Assembly: GCA_944376205.1 (NCBI GenBank)
Contig: CALWBV010000004.1
Location: 6,341-70,340, forward strand
Length of the DNA: 64,000 nucleotides
Reading direction: 5' to 3'
Source: an uncultured Christensenellaceae bacterium
GTDB lineage: Bacteria > Bacillota > Clostridia > Christensenellales > UBA3700
This document shows, in pieces, positions 10,501-32,142 of the stretch (positions are counted from its first letter, which is position 1; each line of letters starts with the position of its first letter). Position numbers and translations under genes: made by a program. The notes below the pieces were generated by a model, which worked only from the letters and a program-made list of their open reading frames with translations, was not told the DNA's origin and did no database searches.

Positions 10501-13260
10501 GGCATAACATCTGAAGAACTCATCGCCACCCTCAAGAGCGGTTCGATAAGCGGCAAGATAAAGAGAGTCATACCTACGGGTATCGACAAGAGAGACAGAT
10601 GGGCTTATGTCGAGTATCTCTCCAAGTGCGAACAAATCCGTTCGACACTCAAAAAGAGAGAAGAGGAACTTGCCAATATATTGCAGATTTCTCCTGACGA
10701 TTCGGCAAAAATCAAGCTGTGTACGACGGATATAGACCAACTCTACGAAAATGCTCAAAAACTCTATGCCGAACTCAACAACGAGGTCTTCGAAGACAGC
10801 TGTTTCAGACTCGTCAAGTTCGGTCCCAATGCGTTTACTCTCTATTATCAATACGCTTACGAAAGTTGCGCAAAGGCAGAGGGAGCTTTCTGCAAGATAT
10901 TCAGTACGAGAGGTTACAGCGGCGGCAACGACATCAACTCCAAGATCGAATATCTTACCAATATTCAAAAGAACTTCGACTTTATACCCAACTGGTGCAA
11001 GTATCAGGAAATCGTCGAAAAGTGTAAAGCGAGCGGTCTCGACTTTATTCTCGAACCTCTCAATGACGGCGAAATCTCCGCTATGGAAGTATTGAGCTGT
11101 TTCAAGAAGTGCGTATACTTCAATTTTGTCAGAAGCGAGTTGTTACTTGACGACGTACTATGTCAATTCTCCGGTCTTACTCTCGAGGAACTCGGCAATA
11201 AGTTCAAAGAACTCACCGAGGATTACGAGAGATGGACAAAGGGCGAACTCTATAACAAACTCGTTGCACGTATTCCCCGTCCCGACGAGGAGGGCGAGCA
11301 TAACCTCGAAAGAGTGGTGCTGATACGTGCGGAGAAGTCGAGTATGAAGGGCACTACGCTCCGAAACCTCTTTGCAAAAATACCCAACATACTTGCGGCA
11401 TGCTGTCCTTGTATGCTCATGAGTCCTACTTCCGTAACGCAGTTTTTGGATATAGACTCGGAGAATAAATTCGACCTCGTTATATTCGACGAAGCGTCCC
11501 AGCTTCCTACCTGTAAGGCTGTCGGATGTATCGCGAGAGGTAAAAACGTTATCGTCGTCGGCGACCCTCAACAGTTGCCTCCTACGACATTCTTCAACGT
11601 CGACTACAAGGACGACGAACATTACGAAGTCGAAGACCTCGACAGCATACTCGACGACTGTCTTGCACTCGGTATGCCCCAGAATCACCTCTTGTGGCAC
11701 TACCGTTCGTTGCACGAAAGTCTTATCGCTTTCTCCAATGCGATGTACTACGGAAATACGTTGCTCACATTCCCTTCGCCCAACGAGCTCAACAGCAAGG
11801 TATCGTTCAGATACGTTGACGGTATTTACGAGAGAGGCGGAGCAAAACACAACAAGAAAGAGGGCGACGAACTCGTCGAAGAAGTTATCAGACGTCTCAA
11901 AGACCCCAACGAGCGCAAATACAGTATCGGTATCGTTACGTTCAACATGGCTCAACAGGTCTATATCGAAAACGAACTTTCCAAGCGCCTGCACGAACAT
12001 AAACTCGATGCATACGCATACGACAGAGAAGAACCTATTTTCGTCAAGAACCTCGAAAACGTTCAGGGTGACGAAAGAGACCTTATCTTGTTCAGCGTAG
12101 GCTACGGTCCCGACAGAAACGGAAAACTCTCTTTGAACTTCGGTCCTATCAACCAGAACGGCGGTTACAAACGTCTTAACGTTGCCGTAACTAGAGCCCG
12201 TAACGAGATGATCGTATTCAGCGGTATCACGGGCAATATGATTGACCTCAATCGTACCAACAGTAAGGGCGTCGAGGGTCTCAAAGCCTTCCTCGAATAT
12301 GCAGAGAGAGGCAAAGACATGCTTGCTATAAGCAATATGGATATCGTAAGGCGCAGTGCAGGCATAAGCGAACTTCTCGGCAAAGAGCTTAAGGACAGAG
12401 GTATTCTTTGCGATTACAACGTCGGCGTAAGCGACTTCAAGATTGACGTTGCCGTAGTCGATCCCAAGAATAAGCATAAGTATATTCTCGCTATCCTTGC
12501 CGACAGCGAAAATTCCTGCAAGCTCAAGGGCGTAAGAGACAGAATCATGATGCAGACCAAGATTTTGAGAAAACTCGGCTGGAATACATATCAGTTGTGG
12601 ACTGTCAATTACTTCAACAACCCCAGACGTGAAATCCAGAAAATCAAGGACTATATCGCTACCCTTACTCAAAAGAAAGTGCTCAGCAAAAAGGCTATCA
12701 GAGATACGATTGCCAAGTACCGTGTGCCTTACAAGGCTTATCCCATCAAGCCTATGATGAGAGTAGGTACAGACTTCGTACTCGATATAGTCAACGAAGA
12801 AAAGATCAAGGAAAAGATAAGGGCTATCATCGAGAAAGAATCGCCTATCGAGTTCCACTATCTCATGGACAAATTGACGTTTATGTTCAATCTGCCCAAG
12901 AGCGCAAAGAAGGCAATATCGACATTGCAAGGTTACGTTGCAGAATTCGATACGTTCAAGAAAGAAGTCGCCGGCAAAGTCTTTTACGTAGATAAACCCG
13001 TAGATACTTTCCGTCCTTCCGACGCTAAAGTTAAGCGTGACATTGCTACAATTTATCCCGAAGAAATTCTTGCAGCAGTCAAGTGTGCGCTCGAAAGCAA
13101 TATAGGTCTCGACCGTGACGGCGTAATCAAAGAGGTAATAGCACTCTTTGCTTACGGTAAAAAGACCAAGACCATTACGGATTGGATCGACAAGACTATA
13201 GATATGGCTATTGACGATAGGCAGTTGATGGTGACGGTTGACGGCAAACTCTCTACATAA
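7543..13260 (+). CDS. DUF4011 / Upf1-like SF1 helicase / REase(MTES_1575)-like / DUF3320 giant protein (1905 aa)
   Basis: SD aaggaaaggagag. DUF4011-type segments: RRLLDMDMRNALLNFK, TLYLSVGFLKWKE..APLLLYPVSL. SF1 motifs: LHGPPGTGKSQTI, VIFDEASQL, VVGDPQQLPPT, WHYRS, VQGDERD, LNVAVTRAR. REase-like segment: DFKIDVAVVDP..YILAILADSE..LRKLGW. The C-terminal ~280 aa are DUF3320-like. Confidence 0.9.
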   Translation: MAEEFVDQESEVQEEVKTEKPAEKSAAEKLAVEKVPVEITLECAAVVNYYQVQNGISPIKRLYVKNRSNDDKENIRVRVTSQPDFMLPYEIEQAILPRRTNAKFDCQSKLSPLFMVAVDKTLQGIITVEVYFGEDLVAKQSSEVQISAFNECNYEGSPESLATFVKRTPQVNQLMSLIEDKLKKWNLPSQSGYTANTNKNYVRNYFAAAFGVLNDQRFEYFKSHESKSEMIQTHKDLLEGKIATATELALLYASLIEANGQNCVIAHIGDEWYVGVFTTNECLPLLVSDDVDLILQKSEKGVNDFTLVSMSDTVSGVSFEKAEKNALNALRKDPSVDFIVDIKRARIMHIYPLPERVLGKDGYDLVQSKDYITSLAPKQFKEYGGEVGGEKEISRVAQWERRLLDMDMRNALLNFKVSRSAVKLLVPTLEDFVAAMGENKSFVIDPKPKDGATSLEKITDGFERGSFLKPFVDYVAYEYKNKHLLTVYDQKSHEGIMLRLFRKEQSIQEETGTSTLYLSVGFLKWKENDTAEEKYAPLLLYPVSLSKKGVASPVFNLDVNVEDVRLNSTLLEFLYQEFNLDIRGLSSVQLDSQQNILSVIARIKKETVGFKGWEILPNVFLATLSFGNYQLWYDVKYKSDKFRQHPIVNSLINNKLELPEDAFDLSDSSSDEAYTSEDRMYLPISADSSQYSAIKDSLSKSFVLHGPPGTGKSQTITNIIANNIVRGKRVLFVAEKMAALSVVHHRLQSIGLGDFCLELHSNKTNKNTVLSQIVNTLSLAESKLPEQNEDDKLQDINDCIEKLERELEAMHRKRYLGISLYQGIMGYFENQDSPDCLRIDSIFYEKLVGSTFNKYIDILTELTMRAKECGDIEKSPFRHIGGFNYSEKWSEEGNSILEIYLMELKHLRQYARTLMPLFNMRTVALTTAKLKALYRICKALQLDYIQNYFKSLSKQPRGIVQSYLEAESRVDTMLNEYTAKYGTYPEGITSEELIATLKSGSISGKIKRVIPTGIDKRDRWAYVEYLSKCEQIRSTLKKREEELANILQISPDDSAKIKLCTTDIDQLYENAQKLYAELNNEVFEDSCFRLVKFGPNAFTLYYQYAYESCAKAEGAFCKIFSTRGYSGGNDINSKIEYLTNIQKNFDFIPNWCKYQEIVEKCKASGLDFILEPLNDGEISAMEVLSCFKKCVYFNFVRSELLLDDVLCQFSGLTLEELGNKFKELTEDYERWTKGELYNKLVARIPRPDEEGEHNLERVVLIRAEKSSMKGTTLRNLFAKIPNILAACCPCMLMSPTSVTQFLDIDSENKFDLVIFDEASQLPTCKAVGCIARGKNVIVVGDPQQLPPTTFFNVDYKDDEHYEVEDLDSILDDCLALGMPQNHLLWHYRSLHESLIAFSNAMYYGNTLLTFPSPNELNSKVSFRYVDGIYERGGAKHNKKEGDELVEEVIRRLKDPNERKYSIGIVTFNMAQQVYIENELSKRLHEHKLDAYAYDREEPIFVKNLENVQGDERDLILFSVGYGPDRNGKLSLNFGPINQNGGYKRLNVAVTRARNEMIVFSGITGNMIDLNRTNSKGVEGLKAFLEYAERGKDMLAISNMDIVRRSAGISELLGKELKDRGILCDYNVGVSDFKIDVAVVDPKNKHKYILAILADSENSCKLKGVRDRIMMQTKILRKLGWNTYQLWTVNYFNNPRREIQKIKDYIATLTQKKVLSKKAIRDTIAKYRVPYKAYPIKPMMRVGTDFVLDIVNEEKIKEKIRAIIEKESPIEFHYLMDKLTFMFNLPKSAKKAISTLQGYVAEFDTFKKEVAGKVFYVDKPVDTFRPSDAKVKRDIATIYPEEILAAVKCALESNIGLDRDGVIKEVIALFAYGKKTKTITDWIDKTIDMAIDDRQLMVTVDGKLST

Positions 13261-22273: not shown

Positions 22274-22336
22274 CAATTCTATGACAATATTGAGTAAAAT
22301 ACGATTTAATTGTTTTGTAAATAAGTTAAAAAGAAT

Positions 22337-22366
22337 AAAAGCTTTCCTCTCGGAAAGCTTTTTTCG
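22337..22366 (+). terminator. Rho-independent terminator (last native signal before the island)
   Basis: aaaagctttcc-tctc-ggaaagctttt followed by a T-run. Confidence 0.8.
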
Positions 22367-22379
22367 ATAGCTAATAAAA

Positions 22380-22496
22380 TTATAAAAATCTTGCAGGATT
22401 GTTAGTTCGCTCCAACAAATAATCTATCGATACGTCAAAATAATCGGCAATCCTTATGAGTGTATCATAATCGGCTGGCTTATTTAGATCATTCAC
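22380..22496 (-). pseudogene. Remnant of an XRE HTH gene (C-terminal half only)
   Basis: The minus strand translates to ..NDLNKPADYDTLIRIADYFDVSIDYLLERTNNPARFL*. The HTH helices 1-3 are missing. The frame overlaps the 3' end of the 22489 gene out of frame. Confidence 0.5.
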
Positions 22497-23259
22497 CTTT
22501 GAGTAAACTATAAAACGCATCGTTTGCTTCATTTTCTGCAAGAATATCGTCAGTCGTATGCAGTATGGCCAACTCTGCTGCCATGTGAAAGAATTGCATG
22601 CATACGCCGTGTCTGTTGCGTTGGATTTTCATCTGGACGTCGTAATCTTTTGCTTTGAAAGGTTTGACTTGAGCATTAATTCCGACTTCGGTAAATTTTT
22701 TGCACAGGTTTTCGCAAGCTTGTTCTCCGTAGTTTCCAAAGACACAAATAGTACCGCATTTTTTTAGTGCTTTAAGTATAAACTTTCTATAGTTATCGTA
22801 AATGTTATGATAATTTATCGCTACGGCGACATAGTATATCTTTTCGAGCACATCTTTGATTTCGGATTTTTCGGCAGTTATCGTGACGCAATATCCTTTT
22901 CCCAAGTCTTTTCTCAATTTATCTTGCAAGCGGTTACGTTTTTTAGCTTCGTCTTCTTCTTTCTTTTTCTTGGCATTTGCAGTTTTCTCTGCCTGGGCTT
23001 TTTCCTCTGCTTGTTTAGCTTTTACTTCAGGAGCTATACGAAATGTAAGACTGTATTTCGTACCTGAAATATTGCCGAGAAAACCTTCGTAGTATATCGG
23101 TTCCGAAACCTCATTTTCGAGTATGTATCCTCTGTTTTTCATTTCTTCTACAACACGGAGTTTCTTTTCTCCTATTTCGGAATTTTTTCCTTCTACTACT
23201 TTTGTGACATATTCTTTACCCATCTGCAATTCTTCTTTAAGTTCTCTGAACAATCCCAT
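22489..23259 (-). CDS. Hypothetical protein with central Lys/Glu-rich linker
   Basis: I prefer the second ATG (MGLFREL..), 7 nt after aaaggag. The middle region reads KAKQAEEKAQAEKTANAKKKKEEDEAKKRNR. No family recognised. Confidence 0.65.
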   Translation of the reverse strand: MGLFRELKEELQMGKEYVTKVVEGKNSEIGEKKLRVVEEMKNRGYILENEVSEPIYYEGFLGNISGTKYSLTFRIAPEVKAKQAEEKAQAEKTANAKKKKEEDEAKKRNRLQDKLRKDLGKGYCVTITAEKSEIKDVLEKIYYVAVAINYHNIYDNYRKFILKALKKCGTICVFGNYGEQACENLCKKFTEVGINAQVKPFKAKDYDVQMKIQRNRHGVCMQFFHMAAELAILHTTDDILAENEANDAFYSLLKGE

Positions 23260-23432
23260 TTTCATGCTCCTTTTTGTTTTTTTTCAAACAACAACTGTTT
23301 ATTATATTATAATTGTTATTCAATTATAAATCAACTGTTAATTTATCCGTACTTGCAATATTGTCTTTCCTGTATATAGGTCAATCAGTTTGAAAAATTA
23401 TAAAAGTTGATGTAATACTCAATAGTTTTATT

Positions 23433-23465
23433 TTTAGGGGCGGATAAATCCATACCGTCCCTAAA
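23433..23465. repeat. Hairpin (11-bp arms, 1 mismatch)
   Basis: tttaggggcgg-(11 nt)-ccgtccctaaa in an AT-rich spacer. Confidence 0.5.
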
Positions 23466-23531
23466 TTATTGTCGCTTTAGCATAAAAAAATATCCAAAAC
23501 TTTTGTCTCATGACTTATTTAATTTTTTAAA

Positions 23532-23611
23532 TTTGGCACCGTGACGTGTGCTTGTCATAGACAAGTGGCGTCGCTTCGCTCCGCCAGACAAGCACACGTC
23601 CTGGTGCCAAA
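23532..23611. repeat. 80-nt GC-rich structured palindromic element (25-bp inverted arms)
   Basis: tttggcaccgtgacgtgtgcttgtc ... gacaagcacacgtcctggtgccaaa matches 23/25. The inner region contains cttgtc-ata-gacaag and the cgcttcgctc core also present in the 13.3 kb elements. Confidence 0.7.
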
Positions 23612-23849
23612 GTAAAATATGGATTTGCAAATTTTAATTAAAAAAATAAATTAATGATAAATCGTTTGTTGTGAAGTATAAAGCATAGTATCTATAATAG
23701 TTTTGTATTAGATTATTTTAAATAATAAGCTTAGATAAGCGACTCTATAATTTTAATAGTTTGTATACATTAAATAATCATTGACTATTGCTTTTTTCAA
23801 TTTTAGGTTTTATAATATAATTGTTAATTATTTGAATTGAGGTATTACT

Positions 23850-25193
23850 ATGAAGAAATCATATATATTTTTTTGTTTGATTGTTATCTGTATTGTGATA
23901 ATGTCGCTATCAGCGTGTGAATTATTAAATAGCGACTTAAAAGATAATATTGTTTATGATGTAGATAATAGATACTTTGAGAAAGCAACATTTGAGCGAC
24001 ATACTTATACTAACGTTAATGTCAACAATAATCAGAGTACAGGTGCAAGATATGAATATATTATTGAGATATCCAGCAAATGTATAGTGTCTTTGTTTGA
24101 ATATGATATTATTTCCTACTTTTATGACTCGAATAATAATTTATTAAAAACATTTGAGAAACATGTGGAACAGGATATTAAGTCTAATGAAAGATTTAAG
24201 GTTGAGTGTGAAGTTAGTGCGCAAGTTTATAATAGTATAGACCATATTTCTACTACTTTAAAAGGGAAATCGTATCAAAATCCTGCGGATTCTCATAATG
24301 ATGCTCATACTATAACCAATCCTATTGAAACTATTTCTTTAAATATTGGGCATAAGGCGATAGTTGTTGGGGATTCATTGACATTAACTGCGACTGTCAC
24401 TCCGTCAAATACTGATGACTATGTAATATGGTCTAGTACCGACGAAAATATACTGACTGTCGACAGCGGTGTGGTAAAAGCTGTAGGAGTTGGTACGGCA
24501 GGAATTAAAGCAAAAGCTGAAAACGGAAAAGTAGAAGCTACGGTTTCTTTAAAGGTTATGCCTAAAAGCAATGGAATGGCAGACATAACTAAATGCAAAA
24601 CGGTAGCAGATTCTGCCATTTTAACTATAACCAACAAATGCTATAATACGGTTTTTGGAATCACGACAAAATCTGAAACGAAGACATTTACAGCTACTAT
24701 TTTTAAGCAAAGCGGTACGACATATTATTTTATTACAGGTTATGAAAATTTCAAAAAAATTGATGGCTATGATTATCAAGAGTGGACAGCCACTGATTGT
24801 AATGGAAAGGAATATAAATTAAATTCAATTCAGCATGAAAAAGATACGGTTCCTTTGGGCAATAATTATGCGATGGCAGTAGGTAGTATAAATGCCTACA
24901 ATCTTGGAGTATTGCCAATCGCATCGCGAGGATATTATTATAGCGACGAAAGGTTGTTTGTTAGAAATGGTACTACCTTTACGCAAACAAGTATGGGTAA
25001 AACGGTTGCAGCACAATCTCCTATAACATCTAATTTGAAATATAAAGAAAGCTTGTATGGTTCTACTGTTTTAGATAGTGAGTTCAATTTTGTTGGATTT
25101 GTTATACGCAAAGATGTTTTAACGGGTAATAGTGATTTTGTAGCTACTTGGGCAATGGAAAAGTTTATTAAGAGTTGCGGTATATCTATATAG
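23850..25193 (+). CDS. Lipoprotein with Big_2 (bacterial Ig-like) domain
   Basis: Lipobox MSLSAC. Big_2 pattern: VGDSLTLTATVTPSNTDDYVIWSSTDENILTVDSGVVKAVGVGTAGIKAKA. The C-terminal ~190 aa look vaguely like a trypsin fold, but I cannot find the His/Asp/Ser triad. Confidence 0.75.
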   Translation: MKKSYIFFCLIVICIVIMSLSACELLNSDLKDNIVYDVDNRYFEKATFERHTYTNVNVNNNQSTGARYEYIIEISSKCIVSLFEYDIISYFYDSNNNLLKTFEKHVEQDIKSNERFKVECEVSAQVYNSIDHISTTLKGKSYQNPADSHNDAHTITNPIETISLNIGHKAIVVGDSLTLTATVTPSNTDDYVIWSSTDENILTVDSGVVKAVGVGTAGIKAKAENGKVEATVSLKVMPKSNGMADITKCKTVADSAILTITNKCYNTVFGITTKSETKTFTATIFKQSGTTYYFITGYENFKKIDGYDYQEWTATDCNGKEYKLNSIQHEKDTVPLGNNYAMAVGSINAYNLGVLPIASRGYYYSDERLFVRNGTTFTQTSMGKTVAAQSPITSNLKYKESLYGSTVLDSEFNFVGFVIRKDVLTGNSDFVATWAMEKFIKSCGISI

Positions 25194-25382
25194 ATAGATT
25201 ATTTTAAGCGTGTTTATACTTAATTGATTAAACAATTAAAAACATCAATGGCAGTTTATTTTTAAATGGGAGGTAGTATTTATTTTATAATTTTGATGAT
25301 GCTCAATCGAGGATAAATATTCTTAGTTTATTTAAAATTTTATATTCTAAGATAATTGTAGTATCGTTTTTATTTGATAATA

Positions 25383-25391
25383 TGGTATAAT
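25383..25391 (+). promoter_or_regulatory. Extended -10 promoter element upstream of the Fic gene
   Basis: TGgTATAAT, ~40 nt upstream of the ATG at 25433. No good -35. Confidence 0.4.
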
Positions 25392-25432
25392 ATTGTAAAA
25401 CATTTTTCTAAGTTTAGTGTGCAGAGGATATT

Positions 25433-26335
25433 ATGGGTGAAAATAAACCACAGAAAGTTTCAATAAGGTTTTTTGGCGACTGGGAAATAAGAGCTGTTTG
25501 GAGTGATGAGAATTCGAAATGGTATTTTAGTGTATTGGATATTATAGGAGCAATACGAAAAGAAGCGTCTTATGAAAAATGTCGTAATTATTGGAAGTAT
25601 CTAAAGGCAAAACTCAAGAAAGAAAATAGTCAGTTGGTTAGTGCTACTACCCAACTGAAATTGACGGCAAAAGACGGCAAGAAATATATGTCGGATGCTC
25701 TTGACGACAAGGGCATACTTATGCTTATATCAGAGTTTCCCAGTAAGGTTGCTACATCTTTTATTCAGTGGTTTACAATGTCCGAAGAAACAATAGACGG
25801 CAAAAGTAAGAGCAAAGCATATAGTTTGTTTGACAGTTCTTTTATCAATAGTATCGAAGTGGGTACCGTAAAAGGACTACAACAAATACACGCTTACATA
25901 TTTGGCGGATTATATGACTTTGCAGGTCAAATTCGCAAACTGAATATTGCAAAAGGCGGATTTCAGTTTGCCATGGCAGCGTATTTGCAAGATTCATTAA
26001 AACAAGTCGAAGCAATGCCAGAAAATACTTTTGAAGAAATAGTAAGCAAATATATAGAGATGAATATATGCCATCCTTTTATGGAAGGCAATGGCCGAAG
26101 TACAAGAATCTGGCTGGATTTAATGCTAAAAAAGAATCTCAAAAAATGTATAGATTGGAGCAAGATAGATAAAAAACAATATCTTGAAGCAATGAAACAT
26201 AGCGTAGTCGACAGCACAATGTTAAGCGAATTGTTGAAGAACGCAATGACAGACGATATCAATAATCGAGAAGTCTCTATGAAAGGTATTGACTACTCAT
26301 ATTATTATGAGCAAGAAGATGATATTGCAGAGTAG
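25433..26335 (+). CDS. Bro-N-like DNA-binding domain fused to a Fic (AMPylase-type) domain
   Basis: N-terminus [75 protein letters not shown] is Bro-N/antirepressor-like. The Fic core [12 protein letters not shown] fits HxFx(D/E)GNGRxxR. The C-terminal SYYYEQ resembles the (S/T)xxxE(G/N) autoinhibitory motif. Confidence 0.85.
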
Positions 26336-26373
26336 AAGATTGATTTTTAGTATAACTATATGCTCTATTAAAA

Positions 26374-26403
26374 AGAGATGCAATAACAAAATGCATCTCT
26401 TTT
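26374..26403. terminator. Bidirectional terminator between convergent Fic and helicase genes
   Basis: agagatgca-(9 nt)-tgcatctct flanked by aaaa and tttt. Confidence 0.8.
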
Positions 26404-26407
26404 TAAT

Positions 26408-29302
26408 TTATTTTATCAAACTTAAAAAGCCTTGTTCAAAGCATGTAGGCATAGCAAAAGTTTTTTCGCCTATAGAAAAGGCAACTTTTATGTAGCTTCT
26501 GTTTTTATATATGCTAGTTATAGTGCCTTCACCAAATTTTTGGTGCAAAACTTTTGTGCCTACGTTTACAGCAGAAAGATCTATTTGAGGTTTTGGTTGT
26601 TCGGCAGGCTTTTGTATTGTCGTTGTAACAGGAGATGAGATGTTGTATTTTGAAGTAATTAAATCGGATTTTTCTTTTGTGTCGGGTTTGTTTTTTGATG
26701 TAGAAGTCAAATCATAGCTCTCATCTATAGCTGCTGCTATTTCGGCTTCCATAGTGGATTGTTGGTTATAGAATAGTTTTTCATATTCTTCTTTTCTGAT
26801 TACGGTATCCCAACCGCCGATTTCGTCTGAAACATGCTTTTCTATACCTGTATAAGATAGGCTGGAATCTTCATAACGCTTAAACTTGAATATGGCATCA
26901 TTCATAAGGCTTGCGTTGAATACGCCGATAGAACAGAGCAGTTCAAAGTCTTTGACATTCAAGCCCGTTACTTTCTTGAAAAGTCCCGGTTCAAGTTGGG
27001 TTATTACATCTTTTAGAGAGCGTTCGCGATAATCCGTCAAATACATAAATACAGGTACACGAGTAGCAAATTTGATAAGTTTTTCTTGGATTTGCTTACG
27101 CATTGATTTATATTCTTTCTCTTCTTCAGATAATTCTTTTTTCTCTTTGGGAGTAAGTTTTTCGCTTTCTTCTTTCTTAGCCTTTTTTACATGTTCTGAT
27201 TTATTGATAATAGTTTCGATATCCGAATTGAGCGAGCGAAAACCTTCGATACGCATAAGGGCATCGAGTGCTTCTTTGTTGTTCAAAAGTCTCGATAGAG
27301 TTTCGTTGTCAACATTGACTAGGAGAGCAGATTCCCATCTTTTTGCAAGCAATGTTGCACTTGTGCCTGCCATTGCAATATCGAGAATATCTTGAGCATT
27401 GATTTGCTTCATTGTGCTTCCGTCATATGCAAGCACGGGCAAAAAACTAATAAATTCTGCTACTTTCTTTTCGGGATTGCTTTCATCTACATTCAAACGG
27501 CATGAGTAGTCAGCAATTTGGCGAAGGGCTCTATCGAGAGCAAAGTCAAACACATAACATTCGTGCTTTATAATTTGTCTGTTGCCGTTATCGTCAATAG
27601 TTTCCCAAGGACTTTGTACACGGAAAGCTGCTTGAAAATATGTCTCGGGAGATTTAAGATTGCGAAGCATAAATATGCCTGTCCAAGGTCTTATTGTTAC
27701 GCCGGTCGTAAGTTTACCGCAAGATAGAGTAATAGTTTTTGTCTCCAGCGGATTGCCCATTGATGCTTGAACAGGGCGTAGGGCATCGAGTCCAACACCT
27801 GCGGATGTTCCTGCACAAACATTTATTTTATAATCGTGATAGAAAGCGTTTTGCTTTTGAGCAAGAAGATTTGCCATGGCATAACACGATGCCACATTGG
27901 GCAAAAACCAAAGTGTATGTGATAATACATTCAATAGTCTTGTGTCCGAATAAGGCATAGGCGGTCTTTTGTCCTGTCCTAATTTGAGGTCATCTATGCT
28001 TGAGGGCAAATATGAGCCTCTTATGAGGTCAAGCCATTTTTGCACTTCGTTTTCGTAGGCAAATCTCGCTTCTTTACCTTTGCCTTTTGCCGAGAAAAAT
28101 ACATTCAAGTCAAACTCGTCATATTCGCCTTGAAGAGCAATTTGTCTTATGCTGTCGGGAATACGATAAGTAAGCATAACCATTCGGGGCAATGCTAAAT
28201 AAGGGTTGTTTGAACCAATCCAATTTTCTTTTGCTCTTTGTTCGTCAGAATAGGTCCAATTATATATTTGGTCTTCGATAAATTCGCCGCTGTTTATAGC
28301 ACGGAAAGGTGTTCCTGACAAAAACAAATAATACGATGTCGATATCGGCAAAAATGTTTCGTTGTAAGCATTGTCGGCTTCTGTACGCTTATAGTCTTCA
28401 TAGTCAAAGTCGGCATTTTCTTCTTCGTCAGGGTTTTCAAAGAGTTTTTTTGCATTTTCTCGCCAAGCACCGAAATGATATTCGTCAAAGATAACCAAAT
28501 CCCAATTCGTGGTATGTATAAATTCATTCTTGGCTTTTATACCGCCGTTGTCATTAGTGCCTAATAAGTCTTGAAACGAACCGAATACTACAATAGGACG
28601 GCTCTTGTCTGCCAAAGCAAACTGTCTATCGATATTGATATTATTGTTGTGAGCGTCTTTGTTAGATATAAATTGCCAACCTTCAAAGTCTATATGAGAA
28701 ACCAAATCTTCACGCCAAGCAGATTCCACAGCAGGCTTGAACGTCAATACGAGTATTTTGTTAAGCCCCATTTTCTTTGCGAGTTCATAGGATGCAAAAG
28801 TTTTGCCAAACCTCATTTTTGCATTCCATAAAAATTTAGGGGATTTATTAGGTTCTTGTTGCTTGGCTGTATTATAAAAAGATATAGTTTTGTCGACAGC
28901 TCTTACTTGTTCGGGGCGCATTTTGAAAGTAGCCGTACGGTTTTCTTCAGAAATAATATCTTCTCTTAATTGCAGAATAGCAGACAAAACGTCTTTTGCA
29001 CCACAACAAAACCATTCATTTTTATCTATGCCTTCATTGAATTGCAAAAATCCCTTTTGTCGCAAAATCGCATGCACGTCATGGTCAGTAAAACAAGTAC
29101 CGTCAGCTCGCATAGCAGATTCTTTAAGTATAATTTTATAAGGGACACTGCTTGTATGTAGTTGTTCCTTGATACGAGTCTCGACATTTCGGTCTGTATA
29201 TCCTATTTTCAAATAACCTTTATGCGAAGCTACTCCCACAAGTTCATAAGCGTATATTGTGGGTGTAACTTGTGGTCTTTGCTTAAAAAATTCTTGTGTC
29301 AT
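26408..29302 (-). CDS. GIY-YIG/T5orf172-like nuclease plus SF2 (ResIII-type) helicase plus coiled-coil plus UvrD/PcrA-like Tudor C-terminus; putative restriction/effector subunit
   Basis: N-terminus: TIYAYEL..GYLKIGYTDRNVETRIKEQ..DVHAIL..NEWF. Helicase motifs: AKMRFGKTF (I), VIFDEYHFGAW (II), LSGTPF (III), QAAFRVQSP (VI). K/E-rich 690-730. C-terminus: GTKVLHQKFGEGTITSI..IKVAFSIGEKTF. The start is 4 nt after the MTase stop, and GGAG lies inside the upstream gene. Confidence 0.85.
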   Translation of the reverse strand: MTQEFFKQRPQVTPTIYAYELVGVASHKGYLKIGYTDRNVETRIKEQLHTSSVPYKIILKESAMRADGTCFTDHDVHAILRQKGFLQFNEGIDKNEWFCCGAKDVLSAILQLREDIISEENRTATFKMRPEQVRAVDKTISFYNTAKQQEPNKSPKFLWNAKMRFGKTFASYELAKKMGLNKILVLTFKPAVESAWREDLVSHIDFEGWQFISNKDAHNNNINIDRQFALADKSRPIVVFGSFQDLLGTNDNGGIKAKNEFIHTTNWDLVIFDEYHFGAWRENAKKLFENPDEEENADFDYEDYKRTEADNAYNETFLPISTSYYLFLSGTPFRAINSGEFIEDQIYNWTYSDEQRAKENWIGSNNPYLALPRMVMLTYRIPDSIRQIALQGEYDEFDLNVFFSAKGKGKEARFAYENEVQKWLDLIRGSYLPSSIDDLKLGQDKRPPMPYSDTRLLNVLSHTLWFLPNVASCYAMANLLAQKQNAFYHDYKINVCAGTSAGVGLDALRPVQASMGNPLETKTITLSCGKLTTGVTIRPWTGIFMLRNLKSPETYFQAAFRVQSPWETIDDNGNRQIIKHECYVFDFALDRALRQIADYSCRLNVDESNPEKKVAEFISFLPVLAYDGSTMKQINAQDILDIAMAGTSATLLAKRWESALLVNVDNETLSRLLNNKEALDALMRIEGFRSLNSDIETIINKSEHVKKAKKEESEKLTPKEKKELSEEEKEYKSMRKQIQEKLIKFATRVPVFMYLTDYRERSLKDVITQLEPGLFKKVTGLNVKDFELLCSIGVFNASLMNDAIFKFKRYEDSSLSYTGIEKHVSDEIGGWDTVIRKEEYEKLFYNQQSTMEAEIAAAIDESYDLTSTSKNKPDTKEKSDLITSKYNISSPVTTTIQKPAEQPKPQIDLSAVNVGTKVLHQKFGEGTITSIYKNRSYIKVAFSIGEKTFAMPTCFEQGFLSLIK

Positions 29303-29306
29303 AATT

Positions 29307-30833
29307 TTACTCCATAGGCTTAATTATTGATTCAATAAAATTTATCTCATCTTGTGATAGATTATATTTTGAATATAAATCTTCGTCCGACCAAGAGCGG
29401 GAAAAGTCTACCCAAGGTACAAATTGAAAATTAGAAATGGATAAATTCATACCTGTTAATGTTTGTAATATTAAAAATCTAACAAATTTAGTTTTTAAAT
29501 AATTAAATGTGTTTTCGGCATTCTCTTTTTTCCTGTCAGGACAAATTACTAAATATGATTGATTGCAAATTTCAGAAGGTTTTAATATTTCCATCCTACT
29601 CAGAACTCTATACATACCATTTTTATCGGGATTACCTGCGTGTTCACATGATAATTTGGAAATCATAGGTTTCCATAAATCAACTGTATCTGTATATTTT
29701 GTAATGTCGTCTCTTGAAACATAAGTCCATCCTTTGCTAGTTAACATGGGGCAATCATATTTTGATGTCTGTTTAGCATTACCTACATAGGTTGATAAAA
29801 AGCCATAAGGAGTTTGTGGACTACAACCGCCTTTATCATTAAGCTTTTTTTCGTTTTCAGCAAGTACCTTATGGATAATCGAAAGTGCCTCATTTCGTCT
29901 AATAAAGATGTCATACTCTGATAAATTTCTTATAGAAGTGCTTGATTTACCATTAGAAATATTAGTAAAAGAGCATTCGCCTTGATAATTTGAATCAAAT
30001 AAGAAATAACAAATGCCACCATTAACATCAACACCGGGAAAGCAATCTTTTGAATCAATAAAATCTACAATGTGGCTGATTTTTTTATTATTCAACATTA
30101 TTTTTCTAAACTCTTCCAAACCAACACCACCAGAAAACCATCTAGCTGGAATTATCATAGTTAAATATTTAGGATTTAGTTTGAACGCTTGCAATACAAA
30201 TTTCTGATAAATTGGAATAGCCCCTAATCCTTTTCCTGCTTCATTCAGGCTCATCTGATAAGGCGGATTACTTATTATAACGTCAAATTTCATATTGAAA
30301 ATCTCCTCTGGGGTATGGGTATGAATAAATTCATAAGCATGCGATTCTAAATCGACTGCACGGTCATATTGTTCTTTATTTGCACCACAAAAAATACATC
30401 TTCCGTCTTTCCATGTGTGTGCTATTTTTTTAAATCTCACATTTCCTTCGGCAGTATCAAATTTGCTTACAGAAAATTCACTGTTTGGATATTTGCTACA
30501 ATACACTCCACGGCGTGATAATAGGCTAGTCAACTCAGTAATAGCTATGCCATATAATTGATTGTGGAATATGTGGTCTATGCGTTGTTGCAAGTCAGGG
30601 AATTGAGGCTCTAATCCTTTTATCAAGCGTTTTGCTATCTCTCGCAAAAATACTCCTGTTTTGCAAGCAGGATCCAAAAATTTAGTATCGGGATTGCAAA
30701 ATAACTCTTGTGGCAGCAAGTCCAACATTTGATTTACAATTTCGGGTGGGGTAAATACTTCGTCATTGGATAAGTTAGCCAAACATGAAAGAACATCGGG
30801 GTTATAAACTTTATCAAAAATACTCTCAGCCAT
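29307..30833 (-). CDS. Eco57I/TaqI-like gamma-class N6-adenine DNA methyltransferase with C-terminal target-recognition half
   Basis: DEVFTPPEIVNQMLDLL (motif X), FLDPACKTGVFL (motif I), FDVIISNPPYQ (motif IV). I prefer the start MAESIF at 30833; its ATG lies inside the upstream stop (ATGGCTGA overlap). Confidence 0.88.
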   Translation of the reverse strand: MAESIFDKVYNPDVLSCLANLSNDEVFTPPEIVNQMLDLLPQELFCNPDTKFLDPACKTGVFLREIAKRLIKGLEPQFPDLQQRIDHIFHNQLYGIAITELTSLLSRRGVYCSKYPNSEFSVSKFDTAEGNVRFKKIAHTWKDGRCIFCGANKEQYDRAVDLESHAYEFIHTHTPEEIFNMKFDVIISNPPYQMSLNEAGKGLGAIPIYQKFVLQAFKLNPKYLTMIIPARWFSGGVGLEEFRKIMLNNKKISHIVDFIDSKDCFPGVDVNGGICYFLFDSNYQGECSFTNISNGKSSTSIRNLSEYDIFIRRNEALSIIHKVLAENEKKLNDKGGCSPQTPYGFLSTYVGNAKQTSKYDCPMLTSKGWTYVSRDDITKYTDTVDLWKPMISKLSCEHAGNPDKNGMYRVLSRMEILKPSEICNQSYLVICPDRKKENAENTFNYLKTKFVRFLILQTLTGMNLSISNFQFVPWVDFSRSWSDEDLYSKYNLSQDEINFIESIIKPME

Positions 30834-31494
30834 TTTCTTGCACTCTCCTATAATGCGATACATATTTTTTTAAGAAAACTCCTTCACTATCGGCATTATT
30901 ATCTAAAAATGAAGTTTGAGTTTTTGTATCATATTCGTCTTTTGCCAAAAGCTCAGCAAAAGTATAATCACTTCTTTGCAACATGCTGCCCGTAATAAAT
31001 GCCCATTCAGAAAATACTATAGGCTTGTCCGTATCTTTGCCGTTTTCGTCTACACAGCAAAGAGTCAAAGCATTTCCGCAAACAATATTTTTCTCTAATA
31101 TGAATTTGACAGCATCTCTTGTCTGGTCGTTGCAATCGTTTTTGCATACGCTTTTATAGGCTTTGTCCCAGATGTTAAATAATCTTTTTCGGCAAGCTAA
31201 TACATTGTCGATAAGAATATCTACGCCGTAAATACTCGATATTGCAAGAACAGCGTTTTTCTCATAATCGAGAGGACTTTTTTTGTATTTCTTCTTAACG
31301 ACATCTAGCTTTCTATTTAATATTTCGACAAGAAAATTACCATCACCGCAAGCCGGCTCCAAAAATCTACTGTCTATTCTCTCGGTTTCTTCTTTTACAA
31401 GGTCGCACATAGCTTTTACTTCTCGTTCATTTGTGAATACTTCGCCATATTCTTGTACTCGGTTTTTAGATTTTATTTGTTTGCTTAATGTCAT
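30826..31494 (-). CDS. Half-size MTase-fold protein lacking the (D/N/S)PP(Y/F/W) catalytic motif
   Basis: GEVFTNEREVKAMCDLV (motif X), FLEPACGDGNFL (motif I), IYGVDI, NIVCGNAL. Where NPPY is expected the sequence reads PIVFSEWAF. I prefer the start MTLSKQ at 31494 (ggag 6 nt upstream), not the listed 31617. Confidence 0.7.
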   Translation of the reverse strand: MTLSKQIKSKNRVQEYGEVFTNEREVKAMCDLVKEETERIDSRFLEPACGDGNFLVEILNRKLDVVKKKYKKSPLDYEKNAVLAISSIYGVDILIDNVLACRKRLFNIWDKAYKSVCKNDCNDQTRDAVKFILEKNIVCGNALTLCCVDENGKDTDKPIVFSEWAFITGSMLQRSDYTFAELLAKDEYDTKTQTSFLDNNADSEGVFLKKYVSHYRRVQENG

Positions 31495-31516
31495 AAATAG
31501 TCTCCGTATGTAAATA

Positions 31517-31545
31517 ATTATATGTGCATTGCACATATTTGTCAA
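31517..31545 (-). promoter_or_regulatory. Consensus sigma-A promoter of the MTase-like/MTase/nuclease-helicase operon
   Basis: The minus strand reads TTGACA-aatatgtgcaatgcaca(17)-TATAAT (plus-strand coordinates: -35 at 31540-31545, -10 at 31517-31522). Confidence 0.7.
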
Positions 31546-31564
31546 TGTGTACTGCACATATTTG
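31520..31564. promoter_or_regulatory. C-box-like operators: a perfect 9+1+9 palindrome plus a second imperfect site
   Basis: ATATGTGCA-T-TGCACATAT (31520-31538) is a perfect palindrome covering the spacer and -10 of the operon promoter. The second site aATGTGtActgCACATAT lies at 31545-31561. The 12-nt direct repeat TGCACATATTTG occurs at 31530 and 31553. Confidence 0.6.
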
Positions 31565-31571
31565 CTAAAAT
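31563..31571 (+). promoter_or_regulatory. Extended -10 element for the C-type regulator; predicts a leaderless mRNA
   Basis: TGcTAAAAT ends 7 nt before the ATG at 31579, and there is no SD upstream of that ATG. Confidence 0.45.
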
Positions 31572-31578
31572 TGACACG

Positions 31579-31791
31579 ATGGAATTTGGAAAGTATTTTA
31601 AAATGTATAGGAAACAAGCTGGATTAACACAGACTGAGGTAGCTGAAAAGCTACACATTAAGCAATCCAATATTAGTGATTGGGAAAAGAATATTTCAAG
31701 ACCTTGTTATGAATATCTAATAGAGCTTGCAAAAATATACGATGTAAGTCTATACGATTTGCTTGGGTTAGACGAGGCGACTTTTCGTTAA
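31579..31791 (+). CDS. XRE-family HTH regulator, candidate controller (C) protein of the R-M-like operon
   Basis: MEFGKYFKMYRKQAGLTQTEVAEKLHIKQSNISDWEKNISRP..LAKIYDVSLYDLLG. I prefer the ATG at 31579 because the listed 31522 start falls inside the operators. Confidence 0.8.
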   Translation: MEFGKYFKMYRKQAGLTQTEVAEKLHIKQSNISDWEKNISRPCYEYLIELAKIYDVSLYDLLGLDEATFR

Positions 31792-31879
31792 AAGAGATTT
31801 AGATAAAGAAATATTTAATCAAATTAAAAATTTATCTTGCAAAGAAAAAAAAGAATTTTTAGATCTATTAAAATTATAA
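31787..31879 (+). other. +1-frame continuation of the C-type gene (possible frameshifted C-terminal helix)
   Basis: Shifting +1 at cttttcgttaa gives VKRDLDKEIFNQIKNLSCKEKKEFLDLLKL*, which looks like the helical tail of longer XRE regulators. Confidence 0.3.
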
Positions 31880-32011
31880 ACACAGATGCAGTAAAGATAA
31901 CAGGGAAATGTTTAAGCGAATTTAAGGTTGCATAACTATAATGTAAAAATTTTTTTAATCAAGAATAGTTATTAAATAATTGTATTATCCCAAAATAATC
32001 TTTTGCAAAGA

Positions 32012-32047
32012 AAAAAAACGAACCTTGAATTTTCAGGGTTCGTTTTA
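32012..32047 (-). terminator. Terminator downstream of tRNA-Leu
   Basis: On the minus strand, acgaaccct-gaaaattca-aggttcgt is followed by tttttttt. Confidence 0.75.
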
Positions 32048-32055
32048 TTCCTGCT

Positions 32056-32142
32056 TGGTGCCGAAGGCGGGACTTGAACCCGCACGATGTCGCCATCACC
32101 GGATTTTGAGTCCGGCGCGTCTGCCAATTCCACCACTTCGGC
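32056..32142 (-). tRNA. tRNA-Leu (anticodon CAA), CCA encoded
   Basis: The reverse complement reads gccgaagtggtggaattggcagacgcgccggactCAAaatccggtgatggcgacatcgtgcgggttcaagtcccgccttcggcacca. The acceptor stem gccgaag/cttcggc pairs, the variable arm is long, and a T-loop ggttcaagtcc is present. 87 nt. Confidence 0.93.

Follow-up and report, generated by a model that had tools for sequence, protein, structure and literature searches.

Gene organization of the operon

The DNA analyzed here, a window of 64,000 nucleotides, carries on its minus strand three intact and closely spaced ORFs with translations of 222, 508, and 964 amino acids, here called G1, G2, and G3 in their order within the operon (Table 1). 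The stop codon of G1 overlaps the start of G2 by 8 nucleotides (30826-30833; tcagccat on the plus strand, ATGGCTGA on the coding strand), through which G1 is translationally coupled to G2, and a gap of 4 nucleotides separates the end of G2 (29307) from the start of G3 (29302). A small regulator gene of the XRE type diverges from the operon. A preliminary description of the locus had listed the same three packed genes with an 8-nt overlap, a 4-nt gap, and a divergent XRE gene; our ORFs and coordinates agree with it, and every motif that it quoted is present in the translations. The operon lies in a small, horizontally acquired island of low GC content, with a tRNA gene and a Fic gene (PDC-S04) beside it.

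TABLE 1 Features of the three-gene operon and its control region, by position in the window
Feature	Position	Strand	Comment
G3 ORF	26408-29302	-	964 aa
G3 Tudor-like beta-barrel tail, aa 906-964 + stop codon	26408-26587	-	Relative of the UvrD/PcrA C-terminal domain
G3 helical C-terminal domain, aa 591-842	26777-27532	-	Conserved; holds a K/E-rich coiled coil
G3 SF2 helicase-like ATPase motor, aa 126-590	27533-28927	-	Pfam ResIII
G3 T5orf172 domain, aa 13-113	28964-29266	-	Predicted GIY-YIG superfamily nuclease
G2 ORF	29307-30833	-	508 aa, begins MAESIF
G2 conserved C-terminal tail, aa 481-508 + stop codon	29307-29393	-	Defined by homologue identity
G2 hypervariable segment, aa 281-480	29394-29993	-	Presumed target-recognition domain (TRD)
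G2 N-terminal part, aa 1-280	29994-30833	-	Gamma-class N6-adenine DNA methyltransferase domain
G1 ORF	30826-31494	-	222 aa, begins MTLSKQ; methyltransferase-like
Control region	31517-31564		Promoter and two repeats
XRE/HTH_3 regulator	31579-31791	+	70 aa; divergent; Pfam HTH_3, E = 1.3e-15

Domain composition of the three proteins

Pfam searches with G3 detected T5orf172 (E = 1.3e-7; 32.5 bits, cut-off 20), MUG113 (27.9; cut-off 22.3), and ResIII (E = 8.5e-7). Among 31 homologues with 30 to 86% identity, residues Y17, K32, G34, and E96 of the N-terminal domain never vary, R43 comes close to that (at least 90%), and the AlphaFold model of the domain has a beta-beta-alpha-beta-alpha-alpha arrangement (pLDDT ~83 to 92). 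With Pfam matches above cut-off and conserved Tyr, Arg, and Glu, the N-terminus falls into the T5orf172 branch of the GIY-YIG superfamily and is predicted to be a DNA nuclease, the precedent for cleavage coming only from other T5orf172 proteins. One such protein is Odn of phage ICP1, for which nuclease activity has been documented (PMC8263062).

The motor part of G3 holds a Q motif (RPEQ), Walker A (MRFGKT), DEYH, LSGTP, and QAAFRVQS, and Q132, K162, G166, K167, D273, E274, H276, G330, T331, Q557, F560, and R561 are invariant in the same 31 homologues. Foldseek matches of the model include the Snf2, Chd1, and ISWI remodellers, LlaBIII (4xqk, E = 6e-10), HsdR of EcoR124I, and ZorD, a likeness that, going by the model, SF2 translocases share in general. 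The preliminary description had read G3 as a GIY-YIG-like nuclease joined at its C-terminal side to a helicase, and this reading is supported. The mostly helical domain behind the motor has no Pfam match and is conserved family-wide in the homologue alignment, for example in a RIPxFMYLTDxRE block. In fused relatives of G3 and G2, the methylase comes after the region matching this domain, which may therefore be where G3 contacts the methylase or is coupled to it.

G2 shows the motif order of gamma-class methylases, X, I, and IV followed by a C-terminal variable region. Motif I reads FLDPACKTGVF and motif IV ISNPPY, with N189, P190, P191, and Y192 invariant in the homologue alignment, and the Pfam Eco57I domain is matched with an E value of 1.8e-37. 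By profile, the nearest solved relatives are BREX PglX/BrxX and M.BseCI, all of them weak. The N-terminal part has a median identity of 66% to 68 homologues, compared to 28% for residues 281 to 480 and 64% for the last 28 residues. We presume that residues 281 to 480 form the TRD, since hypervariability is what diversification of restriction-modification (R-M) specificity predicts; the segment is included in a match of residues 181 to 507 to the PADLOC model MTase_II (PDLC03375). The earlier reading of G2 as a full Eco57I/TaqI-like methyltransferase with a TRD-like half is supported.

G1 retains motif X (GEVFT) and motif I (EPACGDGNF) and has PIVFSEW at the position of NPPY. Its sole Pfam match is sub-threshold and covers positions 18 to 120 of 259 of MmeI_Mtase, the N-terminal half, and hhalign aligns only residues 16 to 72 of G1 with residues 23 to 80 of G2 (probability, 97.7%). 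Across 21 homologues, down to 20% identity, G17, E18, V19, T21, E46, P47, G50, G52, N136, and W164 are invariant. The predicted structure is unusable (pLDDT 50), and the fold and SAM binding of G1 are therefore predicted from its motifs. In 60 of 61 loci G1 precedes G2-G3, and going by its sequence it appears to be a small but obligate component with the SAM-binding motifs and no NPPY. The preliminary description had likewise noted motifs X and I without NPPY, and the protein proves to be conserved in this form.

Distribution, gene order, and fusions

A check on co-occurrence, suggested in the preliminary description, found the trio far outside its source genome. Where a locus includes enough upstream sequence, the genes usually lie on one strand in the order G1-G2-G3, as in 60 of 61 loci from GTDB and 56 of 66 from IMG/VR. 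The trio is spread over many phyla, plasmids, and phages, including Rhizobium and Legionella plasmids (30 to 55% identity) and the complete phage genome NatCom_35866. The family comprises more than 1,100 clusters at 50% identity (E < 1e-30), with at least 598 matches in GTDB species genomes, at least 119 IMG/VR viral contigs, and 81 plasmid records, of which Enterococcus accounts for 32; the Enterococcus plasmid pDY28 carries a family member together with the resistance gene optrA. Some relatives have other defense-type genes inserted between G2 and G3.

Plasmids of Pediococcus, Enterococcus, and Lactococcus encode single proteins of 1417 to 1456 amino acids that join a G3-like half to a G2-like half, in the order nuclease, helicase, MTase, TRD. 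A REBASE-derived PADLOC model labeled Type IIG, REase_MTase_IIG (PDLC03626), is matched by G3 over positions 151 to 801 and by G2 over positions 863 to 1359. The fusions (a Rosetta stone argument) and the single HMM that covers both halves speak for the R-M reading given below.

Comparison with known restriction-modification systems

Which known system does this operon resemble most? With the Type ISP enzymes LlaGI and LlaBIII it shares both modules and module order, i.e., an N-terminal nuclease, an SF2 motor, a linker domain, a gamma-class N6-adenine methylase, and a C-terminal TRD, an order that the fused relatives reproduce in one chain; LlaBIII is also among the structural neighbors of G3. 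There are differences as well. The Type ISP nuclease is an N-terminal Mrr-type PD-(D/E)xK domain, whereas G3 has T5orf172/GIY-YIG; a Type ISP enzyme is one polypeptide, whereas methylase and nuclease-motor are split here, with the methylase gene first; and Type ISP lacks an equivalent of G1, the extra conserved subunit resembling a dead methylase. Searches of the PDB, which includes LlaBIII (4xqk), with phmmer and profiles found no sequence homology to LlaGI or LlaBIII for G3, G2, or the fused protein of L. lactis, so that the likeness is one of fold only; nor did G3 or G2 match other solved R-M enzymes significantly in sequence. Overall, the operon likely encodes a three-subunit ATP-dependent R-M system in which the Type ISP modules are spread over separate polypeptides. 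The preliminary description had proposed an ATP-dependent restriction or defense module, which the domains, intact motifs, conserved gene order, fusions, hypervariable TRD, motor-like fold, and defense context (the low-GC island here, defense-type genes between G2 and G3 in relatives) support, along with the nuclease precedent of T5orf172 and the DnmA-YeeB-YeeC clusters described below. Its verdict of an unplaced architecture is overstated, given that the fused relatives follow the Type ISP order and that PDLC03626 covers both G3 and G2.

The claim of an undescribed system was also overstated. Papers from NEB and Bristol, Morgan et al. 2009 (PMC2731913) and Sisakova et al. 2013 (PMC3553950), already pointed out relatives of MmeI and of Type ISP enzymes with helicase subunits and GIY-YIG nucleases and proposed a role in ATP-dependent R-M; the DnmA-YeeB-YeeC cluster, too, has the same set of domains. 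No biochemically or genetically characterized member of the family was found in the literature searched, and the trio is therefore not assigned to an already characterized subtype.

Type III systems (Mod plus Res, e.g., EcoP15I) likewise pair a site-recognizing methylase with an SF2 ATPase-nuclease, share ResIII, and have the methylase gene first. In Type III, Res begins with its SF2 ATPase and carries a PD-(D/E)xK nuclease at the C-terminus, while the dimeric Mod belongs to the beta class of methylases and has its TRD internally. Here, by contrast, the nuclease is an N-terminal GIY-YIG domain, the C-terminus of G3 consists of the helical domain and a Tudor tail, and G2 is a gamma-class methylase with a C-terminal TRD.

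Could the operon instead work like a Type IIG/IIL enzyme, cutting at a fixed short distance, with the helicase as an ATP-gated switch or a Type III-like sliding trigger and no processive translocation? The partial matches of G2 and G3 to PDLC03626 and the Eco57I/MmeI kind of methylase, the only features shared with this class, point that way, and Pfam calls the motor ResIII. To our knowledge, however, the characterized members of Type IIG/IIL, among them MmeI and Eco57I, are single chains without an ATPase domain, so the PADLOC label is one that fused nuclease-methylase proteins receive by default. Every SF2 motor motif is invariant here, and the closest folds are double-stranded DNA translocases, including LlaBIII and HsdR, making this alternative improbable.

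A similar gene content is found in DnmA(YeeA)-YeeB-YeeC, also a conserved three-gene operon with an MmeI/Eco57I-type m6A methylase with TRD, an SF2 helicase, and a T5orf172 nuclease. Comparing YeeB and YeeC by description, nuclease and helicase are separate proteins there, whereas T5orf172 is fused to the helicase N-terminus here; DnmA is large, MmeI-like, and without nuclease, whereas G2 is short; and the third gene here is a dead-methylase paralogue. DnmA-YeeB-YeeC clusters have been proposed to be ATP-dependent R-M systems with single-strand modification (PMC2731913; PMC9973331), and, in the account cited in PMC9973331, deletion of dnmA or yeeB makes Vibrio crassostreae more phage sensitive. 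In Bacillus subtilis, the related cluster showed neither restriction nor anti-phage activity (PMC9973331), which speaks against the R-M reading. This precedent raises the question of whether G2 is an orphan epigenetic regulator whose partners G1 and G3 no longer restrict, as has been proposed for the B. subtilis cluster, or whether the operon blocks replication in a BREX-like manner without cutting, as its weak best solved relatives, BREX PglX/BrxX, might suggest. Such a role seems quite unlikely in view of three intact genes, nuclease, ATPase, and methylase motifs that are invariant in more than 30 diverse homologues within a family of >1,100 clusters, a hypervariable TRD, wide horizontal spread on plasmids and phages, and no PglZ, BrxC, or DUF499 genes in the operon or the flank scanned. 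MANTIS/Gao_RL and BREX, which are methylation-based systems as well, likewise combine a hemimethylating PglX-like m6A methylase with a small enigmatic co-factor and a helicase-nuclease effector (preprint 10.64898/2026.09.23.753747). Pfam and PADLOC searches of the operon and the flank at 22489-26335 revealed none of the MANTIS/BREX components DUF499/BrxC AAA+, DUF3870, PLD nuclease, or PglZ; related loci were examined for the G1-G2-G3 genes and passengers between G2 and G3. The only matches to BREX models in PADLOC are weak ones of the methylase regions of G1 and G2 to PglX.

As a rival explanation, it is very unlikely that the operon serves mobile elements above all as a selfish module for addiction or superinfection exclusion, kept since its loss kills the host or since competing phages are excluded and not for host defense. 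The 81 plasmid records, at least 119 IMG/VR contigs, one complete phage genome, and the small horizontally acquired island fit such a role. Most R-M systems behave in this way; the explanation is compatible with an R-M mechanism and accounts for persistence rather than mode of action.

Proposed mechanism of the three-subunit system

In the proposed ATP-dependent R-M system, G2 would read a short recognition site through its single C-terminal TRD and place m6A on host DNA, probably at an asymmetric sequence of which one strand is methylated. G3, an SF2 motor for double-stranded DNA, may dock onto G2 through its conserved helical C-terminal domain. When G2 meets an unmethylated site, ATP hydrolysis would let G3 move or communicate along the DNA, and its nuclease would cut. 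In Type ISP enzymes, ATP drives translocation in one direction, and cleavage follows when two enzymes collide head-to-head. G1, which is paralogous to the SAM-binding half of the methylase and has no catalytic motif, may act as a noncatalytic partner of G2-G3, either as a SAM-binding regulatory subunit or as an assembly subunit. A more specific version is speculative, though conceivable: G1 would be an obligate dead pseudomethyltransferase that binds SAM or reads methylation of the target adenine with the invariant E-W pair that it has instead of NPPY, and so licenses the GIY-YIG motor-nuclease. If that is true, the trio would be a distinct three-subunit class of ATP-dependent R-M beyond a split Type ISP. 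The role of G1 is the most interesting part of the system, and a conserved dead-methylase partner, to which the textbook R-M types offer no parallel, poses a concrete question that can be tested.

In gut Clostridia, Bacteroidota, and lactic acid bacteria, members of the family probably help to limit the transfer of phages and plasmids, and their specificities represent a pool of unmapped m6A motifs. The Type ISP plan in the form of several polypeptides, and with another nuclease fold, is also relevant to the evolution of Type I, ISP, IIG, and III enzymes by domain shuffling.

Lineage-specific additions

After a disordered linker (residues 843 to 905), G3 ends in the Tudor-like tail, modeled as five strands with pLDDT of ~90 to 95. 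Its match to the Pfam PcrA/UvrD Tudor domain is sub-threshold (18.1; cut-off 23.9), PF21196 is matched by 10 of 20 tails, and a profile of 20 tails matches the C-terminal Tudor structures of UvrD/PcrA (6yi2 and 7egs) with E values of ~1e-4. Among close relatives, the tail occurs at roughly three of every four loci (61 of 82), and it is absent in the more divergent aligned representatives of the G3 family. The Tudor domain named in the preliminary description is confirmed but is not a constant family feature; it is a lineage-specific add-on. UvrD and PcrA are tethered to RNA polymerase, and in the Tudor-tailed lineage the effector might be tethered in the same way.

The operon promoter is a perfect sigma-70 promoter on the minus strand (TTGACA, 17 nt, TATAAT, from 31545 down to 31517). 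Two 20-nt repeats, at 31522-41 and 31545-64, overlap it, and each holds a dyad of the TGTGCA-N-TGCACA type. By binding to these two palindromic operators over the promoter, the XRE protein would act as a repressor that sets the expression level of the operon in this lineage. A small HTH protein with paired palindromic candidate operators at a promoter is also found in C-protein-controlled R-M systems, where the controller is constant and co-transcribed upstream of the nuclease gene, whereas here it is divergent and sporadic. An XRE homologue was detected in only 5 of 80 related genomic loci and in 1 viral locus, and with a gene that is not co-transcribed, C-type control, put forward in the preliminary description, is not a property of the system; as a controller of the operon, the XRE regulator is accessory and lineage-specific. 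The repeat pair is also conserved beside the XRE homologue in loci L009 and L026.

A conserved three-gene operon

The arrangement first described from the sequence, three packed genes on the minus strand of the window with a divergent XRE regulator gene upstream, is borne out by intact open reading frames, gene spacing and domain matches. The three genes encode a methyltransferase-like protein (G1), an N6-adenine methylase (G2) and a nuclease-helicase (G3). The plus strand reads tcagccat at 30826 to 30833, so the G1 stop codon overlaps the G2 start as ATGGCTGA, and G2 and G3 are spaced by 4 nt. The domains proposed for G3 (T5orf172 and ResIII) and G2 (Eco57I) were all matched in Pfam. G3 matches T5orf172 (E 1.3e-7) and MUG113, both above cut-off, ResIII (E 8.5e-7) and, sub-threshold, the PcrA/UvrD Tudor domain; G2 matches Eco57I (E 1.8e-37); G1 has a single match, also sub-threshold, which covers the front half of the MmeI methylase domain.

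Features of the operon and the surrounding island (window positions)
Feature	Position	Strand	Description
Low-GC island	22300-32050		9.7 kb, GC 0.33 (flanks 0.43)
Small HTH-like ORF	22380-22541		in island
K/E-rich ORF	22489-23265		258 aa, in island
Big_2 lipoprotein-like ORF	23850-25193		in island
Bro-N + Fic protein	25433-26335	+	300 aa, directly 3' of G3; PADLOC candidate defence family PDC-S04
G3	26408-29302	-	intact ORF, 964 aa
G2	29307-30833	-	intact ORF, 508 aa from MAESIF
G1	30826-31494	-	intact ORF, 222 aa from MTLSKQ
Operon promoter	31545 down to 31517	-	TTGACA, 17 nt, TATAAT
XRE/HTH_3 ORF	31579-31791	+ (divergent)	70 aa; Pfam HTH_3 E 1.3e-15
tRNA-Leu(CAA)	32056-32142		island border

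The G3 family is very large. All 8,000 candidates scored in a word-indexed search were significant, an exhaustive search of 50%-identity representatives gave 4,458 matches (1,145 below 1e-30), and a scan of one genome per species in GTDB yielded at least 598 G3 loci. Among the matches listed, these loci fall in Bacillota, Bacteroidota, Fibrobacterota, Spirochaetota, Chloroflexota, Pseudomonadota, Myxococcota and other phyla, often at 60 to 80% identity, and this combination of wide range and high identity points to horizontal spread of the family.

G1, G2 and G3 form a conserved unit. In the co-occurrence survey proposed by the preliminary description, the trio recurs outside this genome: of the 61 fetched genomic loci that extend at least 2.4 kb upstream of G3, 60 have G1 and G2 homologues there with unchanged strand and order, and both are kept in 56 of 66 IMG/VR loci with enough upstream sequence. 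The trio is also annotated on the Rhizobium phaseoli plasmid pRphaN671a (as N-6 DNA methylase, Eco57I-domain methylase and GIY-YIG nuclease family protein) and is present on a Legionella adelaidensis plasmid, at only ~30% identity, as well as on the complete phage NatCom_35866. A solitary G3 homologue (57% identity) on the Corynebacterium crudilactis plasmid pCRULAC2 adjoins aph resistance genes and transposases; neither G1 nor G2 was detected near it, and it is probably the leftover of a system after transposon rearrangement.

The junction between G2 and G3 is a hotspot where other defence genes insert. A variable passenger gene separates the two homologues in ~15 related loci (including L009, L014, L018, L026, L053, L070, L080 and L083), encoding HEPN_Apea, AAA_21 with DUF4276, Abi_2, DUF1016/YhcG, an IS200 transposase, DUF2971 or toxin-antitoxin-like pairs. 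Such variable insertions are the usual behaviour of defence loci.

Anatomy of the nuclease-helicase G3

Across 31 aligned homologues with 30 to 86% identity, Y17, K32, G34 and E96 of the T5orf172 domain are invariant and R43 is nearly so; Y17, R43 and E96 match the Tyr, Arg and Glu residues of the GIY-YIG active site. The T5orf172 domain belongs to the GIY-YIG superfamily and has a nuclease function documented for Odn of phage ICP1 (PMC8263062). In the Walker A motif of the same alignment, K162, G166 and K167 are invariant and T168 nearly invariant, and further conserved SF2 positions are Q132, D273/E274/H276 (DEYH), G330/T331 with a nearly invariant S329, and Q557/F560/R561.

The AlphaFold model of G3 (mean pLDDT 76.8) has an N-terminal beta-beta-alpha-beta-alpha-alpha domain and two RecA-like lobes, followed by a helical C-terminal domain (aa 591 to 842), a disordered linker and a confident five-stranded barrel (aa 906 to 964). 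PDB sequence and profile searches with G3 returned nothing significant. Foldseek against the PDB matched the Snf2, Chd1, ISWI and INO80 remodellers, HsdR of EcoR124I, ZorD, RIG-I-like proteins and the Type ISP enzyme LlaBIII (4xqk, E 6e-10 over 875 aligned columns). The modelled fold is that of a generic SF2 double-strand nucleic-acid motor and not a specific family match. The tail is related to the C-terminal Tudor domain of UvrD/PcrA: a profile built from 20 tails matches structures 6yi2 and 7egs (E ~1e-4), and 10 of the 20 match PF21196. This tail is found in only 61 of 82 loci and is absent from the more divergent representatives of the 31-homologue alignment, and is thus a lineage-specific addition.

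G2 and its fusion to G3 in relatives

G2 carries motifs X, I (FLDPACKTGVF) and IV (an invariant NPPY) in gamma-class order. Among solved structures, a profile search places BREX PglX/BrxX and M.BseCI nearest to it, though all these matches are weak. Median identity among 68 homologues is 66% over aa 1 to 280, 28% over aa 281 to 480 and 64% in the last 28 residues, the pattern expected where a catalytic domain is conserved and the target-recognition domain (TRD) behind it is hypervariable. This combination is the signature of diversifying restriction-modification (R-M) specificity.

In plasmid-borne relatives from Enterococcus faecium and E. faecalis (32 records), Pediococcus, Lactiplantibacillus, Lactococcus and others, a single protein of 1,417 to 1,456 aa begins with a G3-like part and ends with a G2-like part; PGAP labels it 'Eco57I restriction-modification methylase domain-containing protein'. 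Such fused forms are common on plasmids of lactic acid bacteria and enterococci, with examples on E. faecium pDY28-optrA, Pediococcus pRS5 and L. lactis pCV56A, and the modules run in the order nuclease, motor, methylase, TRD. In the L. lactis version, a different N-terminal stretch of ~290 aa, with a weak DUF4145 match, takes the place of a recognisable T5orf172 domain. PADLOC model PDLC03626 ('REase_MTase_IIG', REBASE-derived, 1,359 positions) is matched by G3 over positions 151 to 801 and by G2 over 863 to 1359. The fusion of the two halves in relatives is strong evidence that G2 and G3 work as one enzyme. In Enterococcus and Lactococcus a small G1-like gene is retained upstream of the fused gene, and thus G1 goes with the motor-methylase core. 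One plasmid with a fused relative also carries optrA and erm(A).

G1, a methylase-like protein without a catalytic motif

G1 is a paralogue of the SAM-binding start of the methylase alone. Its aa 16 to 72 align with aa 23 to 80 of G2 (hhalign, 97.7% probability), and in HsdM, M.BseCI and MmeI its PDB profile matches are confined to the region of motifs X and I. In 21 homologues with identities down to 20%, the invariant or nearly invariant positions are GEVFT (motif X), EPxxGxG (motif I), DN..C, N136/G140/A142/L143 ('NIxCGNAL') and P158/F161/E163/W164 ('PIxFxEW'), and no (D/N)PP(Y/F) motif is present in G1. G1 is thus conserved and not degraded; it probably binds SAM, yet it cannot methylate. 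The AlphaFold model of G1, built on a shallow alignment of sequences at least 72% identical, reached a pLDDT of 50 and was left out of the fold search. A split methylase made of G1 and G2 is rejected, as G2 alone has motifs X, I and IV and G1 duplicates the first two instead of complementing them. This conserved dead-methylase subunit is the part of the system that deserves experiment.

Proposed mechanism and relation to known systems

These features can be assembled into an ATP-dependent R-M enzyme built from subunits G1, G2 and G3. G2 would recognize and methylate the site; G3 would dock via its C-terminal helical domain and, with ATP, move or signal along unmethylated DNA, which the T5orf172 nuclease would cut; G1 would be a partner without catalytic activity that serves as a SAM-dependent regulator or in assembly. 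By analogy with the MmeI, Type ISP, Type III, BREX and MANTIS enzymes, which have a single TRD, methylation would likely affect one strand of an asymmetric site.

The Type ISP enzymes LlaGI and LlaBIII are closest to the trio in plan but differ in nuclease family, subunit structure and the lack of an extra G1. When G3, G2, G1 and the L. lactis fusion were searched against the PDB by sequence and profile, no R-M enzyme reached a significant E-value, and no sequence homology to LlaGI/LlaBIII is detectable; therefore, no sequence homology can be claimed to enzymes of Types ISP, I or III. Closest in domain inventory is DnmA-YeeB-YeeC, which Morgan et al. (2009, PMC2731913) predicted to act as an R-M system that pairs a helicase with GIY-YIG and uses single-strand modification; it was inactive in B. 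subtilis (PMC9973331), and an effect on phage sensitivity in Vibrio crassostreae is reported as cited there. Type III, Type IIG, BREX and MANTIS each fail on defining features as identities of the trio, MANTIS/Gao_RL being rejected because DUF499, DUF3870 and a PLD nuclease are absent from the operon and the flanking genes scanned (22489 to 26335).

The preliminary description had called the module unplaced and undescribed, which is overstated. In the PADLOC check it proposed, G3 and G2 match the REBASE-derived model and no named non-R-M system: NCBIfam and PADLOC gave no match to BREX, DISARM, MADS, Hma, Gao_RL, Zorya or others beyond weak motif-I matches. Helicase plus GIY-YIG relatives had been noticed in 2009 and again in 2013, when Sisakova et al. 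(PMC3553950) mentioned that Type ISP and IIL enzymes have relatives that use helicase subunits and GIY-YIG nucleases. Literature searches found no publication that treats or characterises the trio, nor does it appear in the 2006 GIY-YIG survey. Overall, the finding is real and coherent, and the trio represents a branch of the ATP-dependent R-M systems that had been noticed before but is uncharacterised.

Control region

Between G1 and the XRE gene, a gap of 84 nt contains a perfect sigma-70 promoter for the operon, overlapped by two 20-nt direct repeats, each with a TGTGCA-N-TGCACA-type dyad; the repeat pair is conserved next to the XRE homologues of two related loci, L009 and L026. Together, repeats and promoter look like a C-protein-style operator, from which the arrangement differs in that the XRE gene is divergent and restricted to one sub-lineage. 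With a homologue detected in only 5 of 80 genomic loci surveyed, XRE is rejected as a core component, and the earlier emphasis on C-protein control was overstated. In the region 31563 to 31581, the XRE start codon (31579) lies ~7 nt past TGCTAAAAT, an extended -10-like element, and the regulator may be translated from a leaderless mRNA, as are several R-M C-proteins.

Genomic island and neighbouring genes

The operon lies within a low-GC island bordered by a RACo-like gene on one side and tRNA-Leu(CAA) on the other. No integrase was found in the island, nor were att repeats of the tRNA-Leu 3' end detected at its border. The neighbouring Bro-N/Fic protein matches PDC-S04 nearly end to end (E 3e-152) and an NCBIfam NmFic-type adenylyltransferase model above cut-off. 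A likely second defence gene elsewhere in the window (7543 to 13260, plus strand) encodes a 1,905-aa protein that has DUF4011, AAA_11/AAA_12 (SF1 helicase) and REase_MTES_1575 domains. This protein matches PDC-S37, a PADLOC candidate, at E 3e-292 and Hhe in part.
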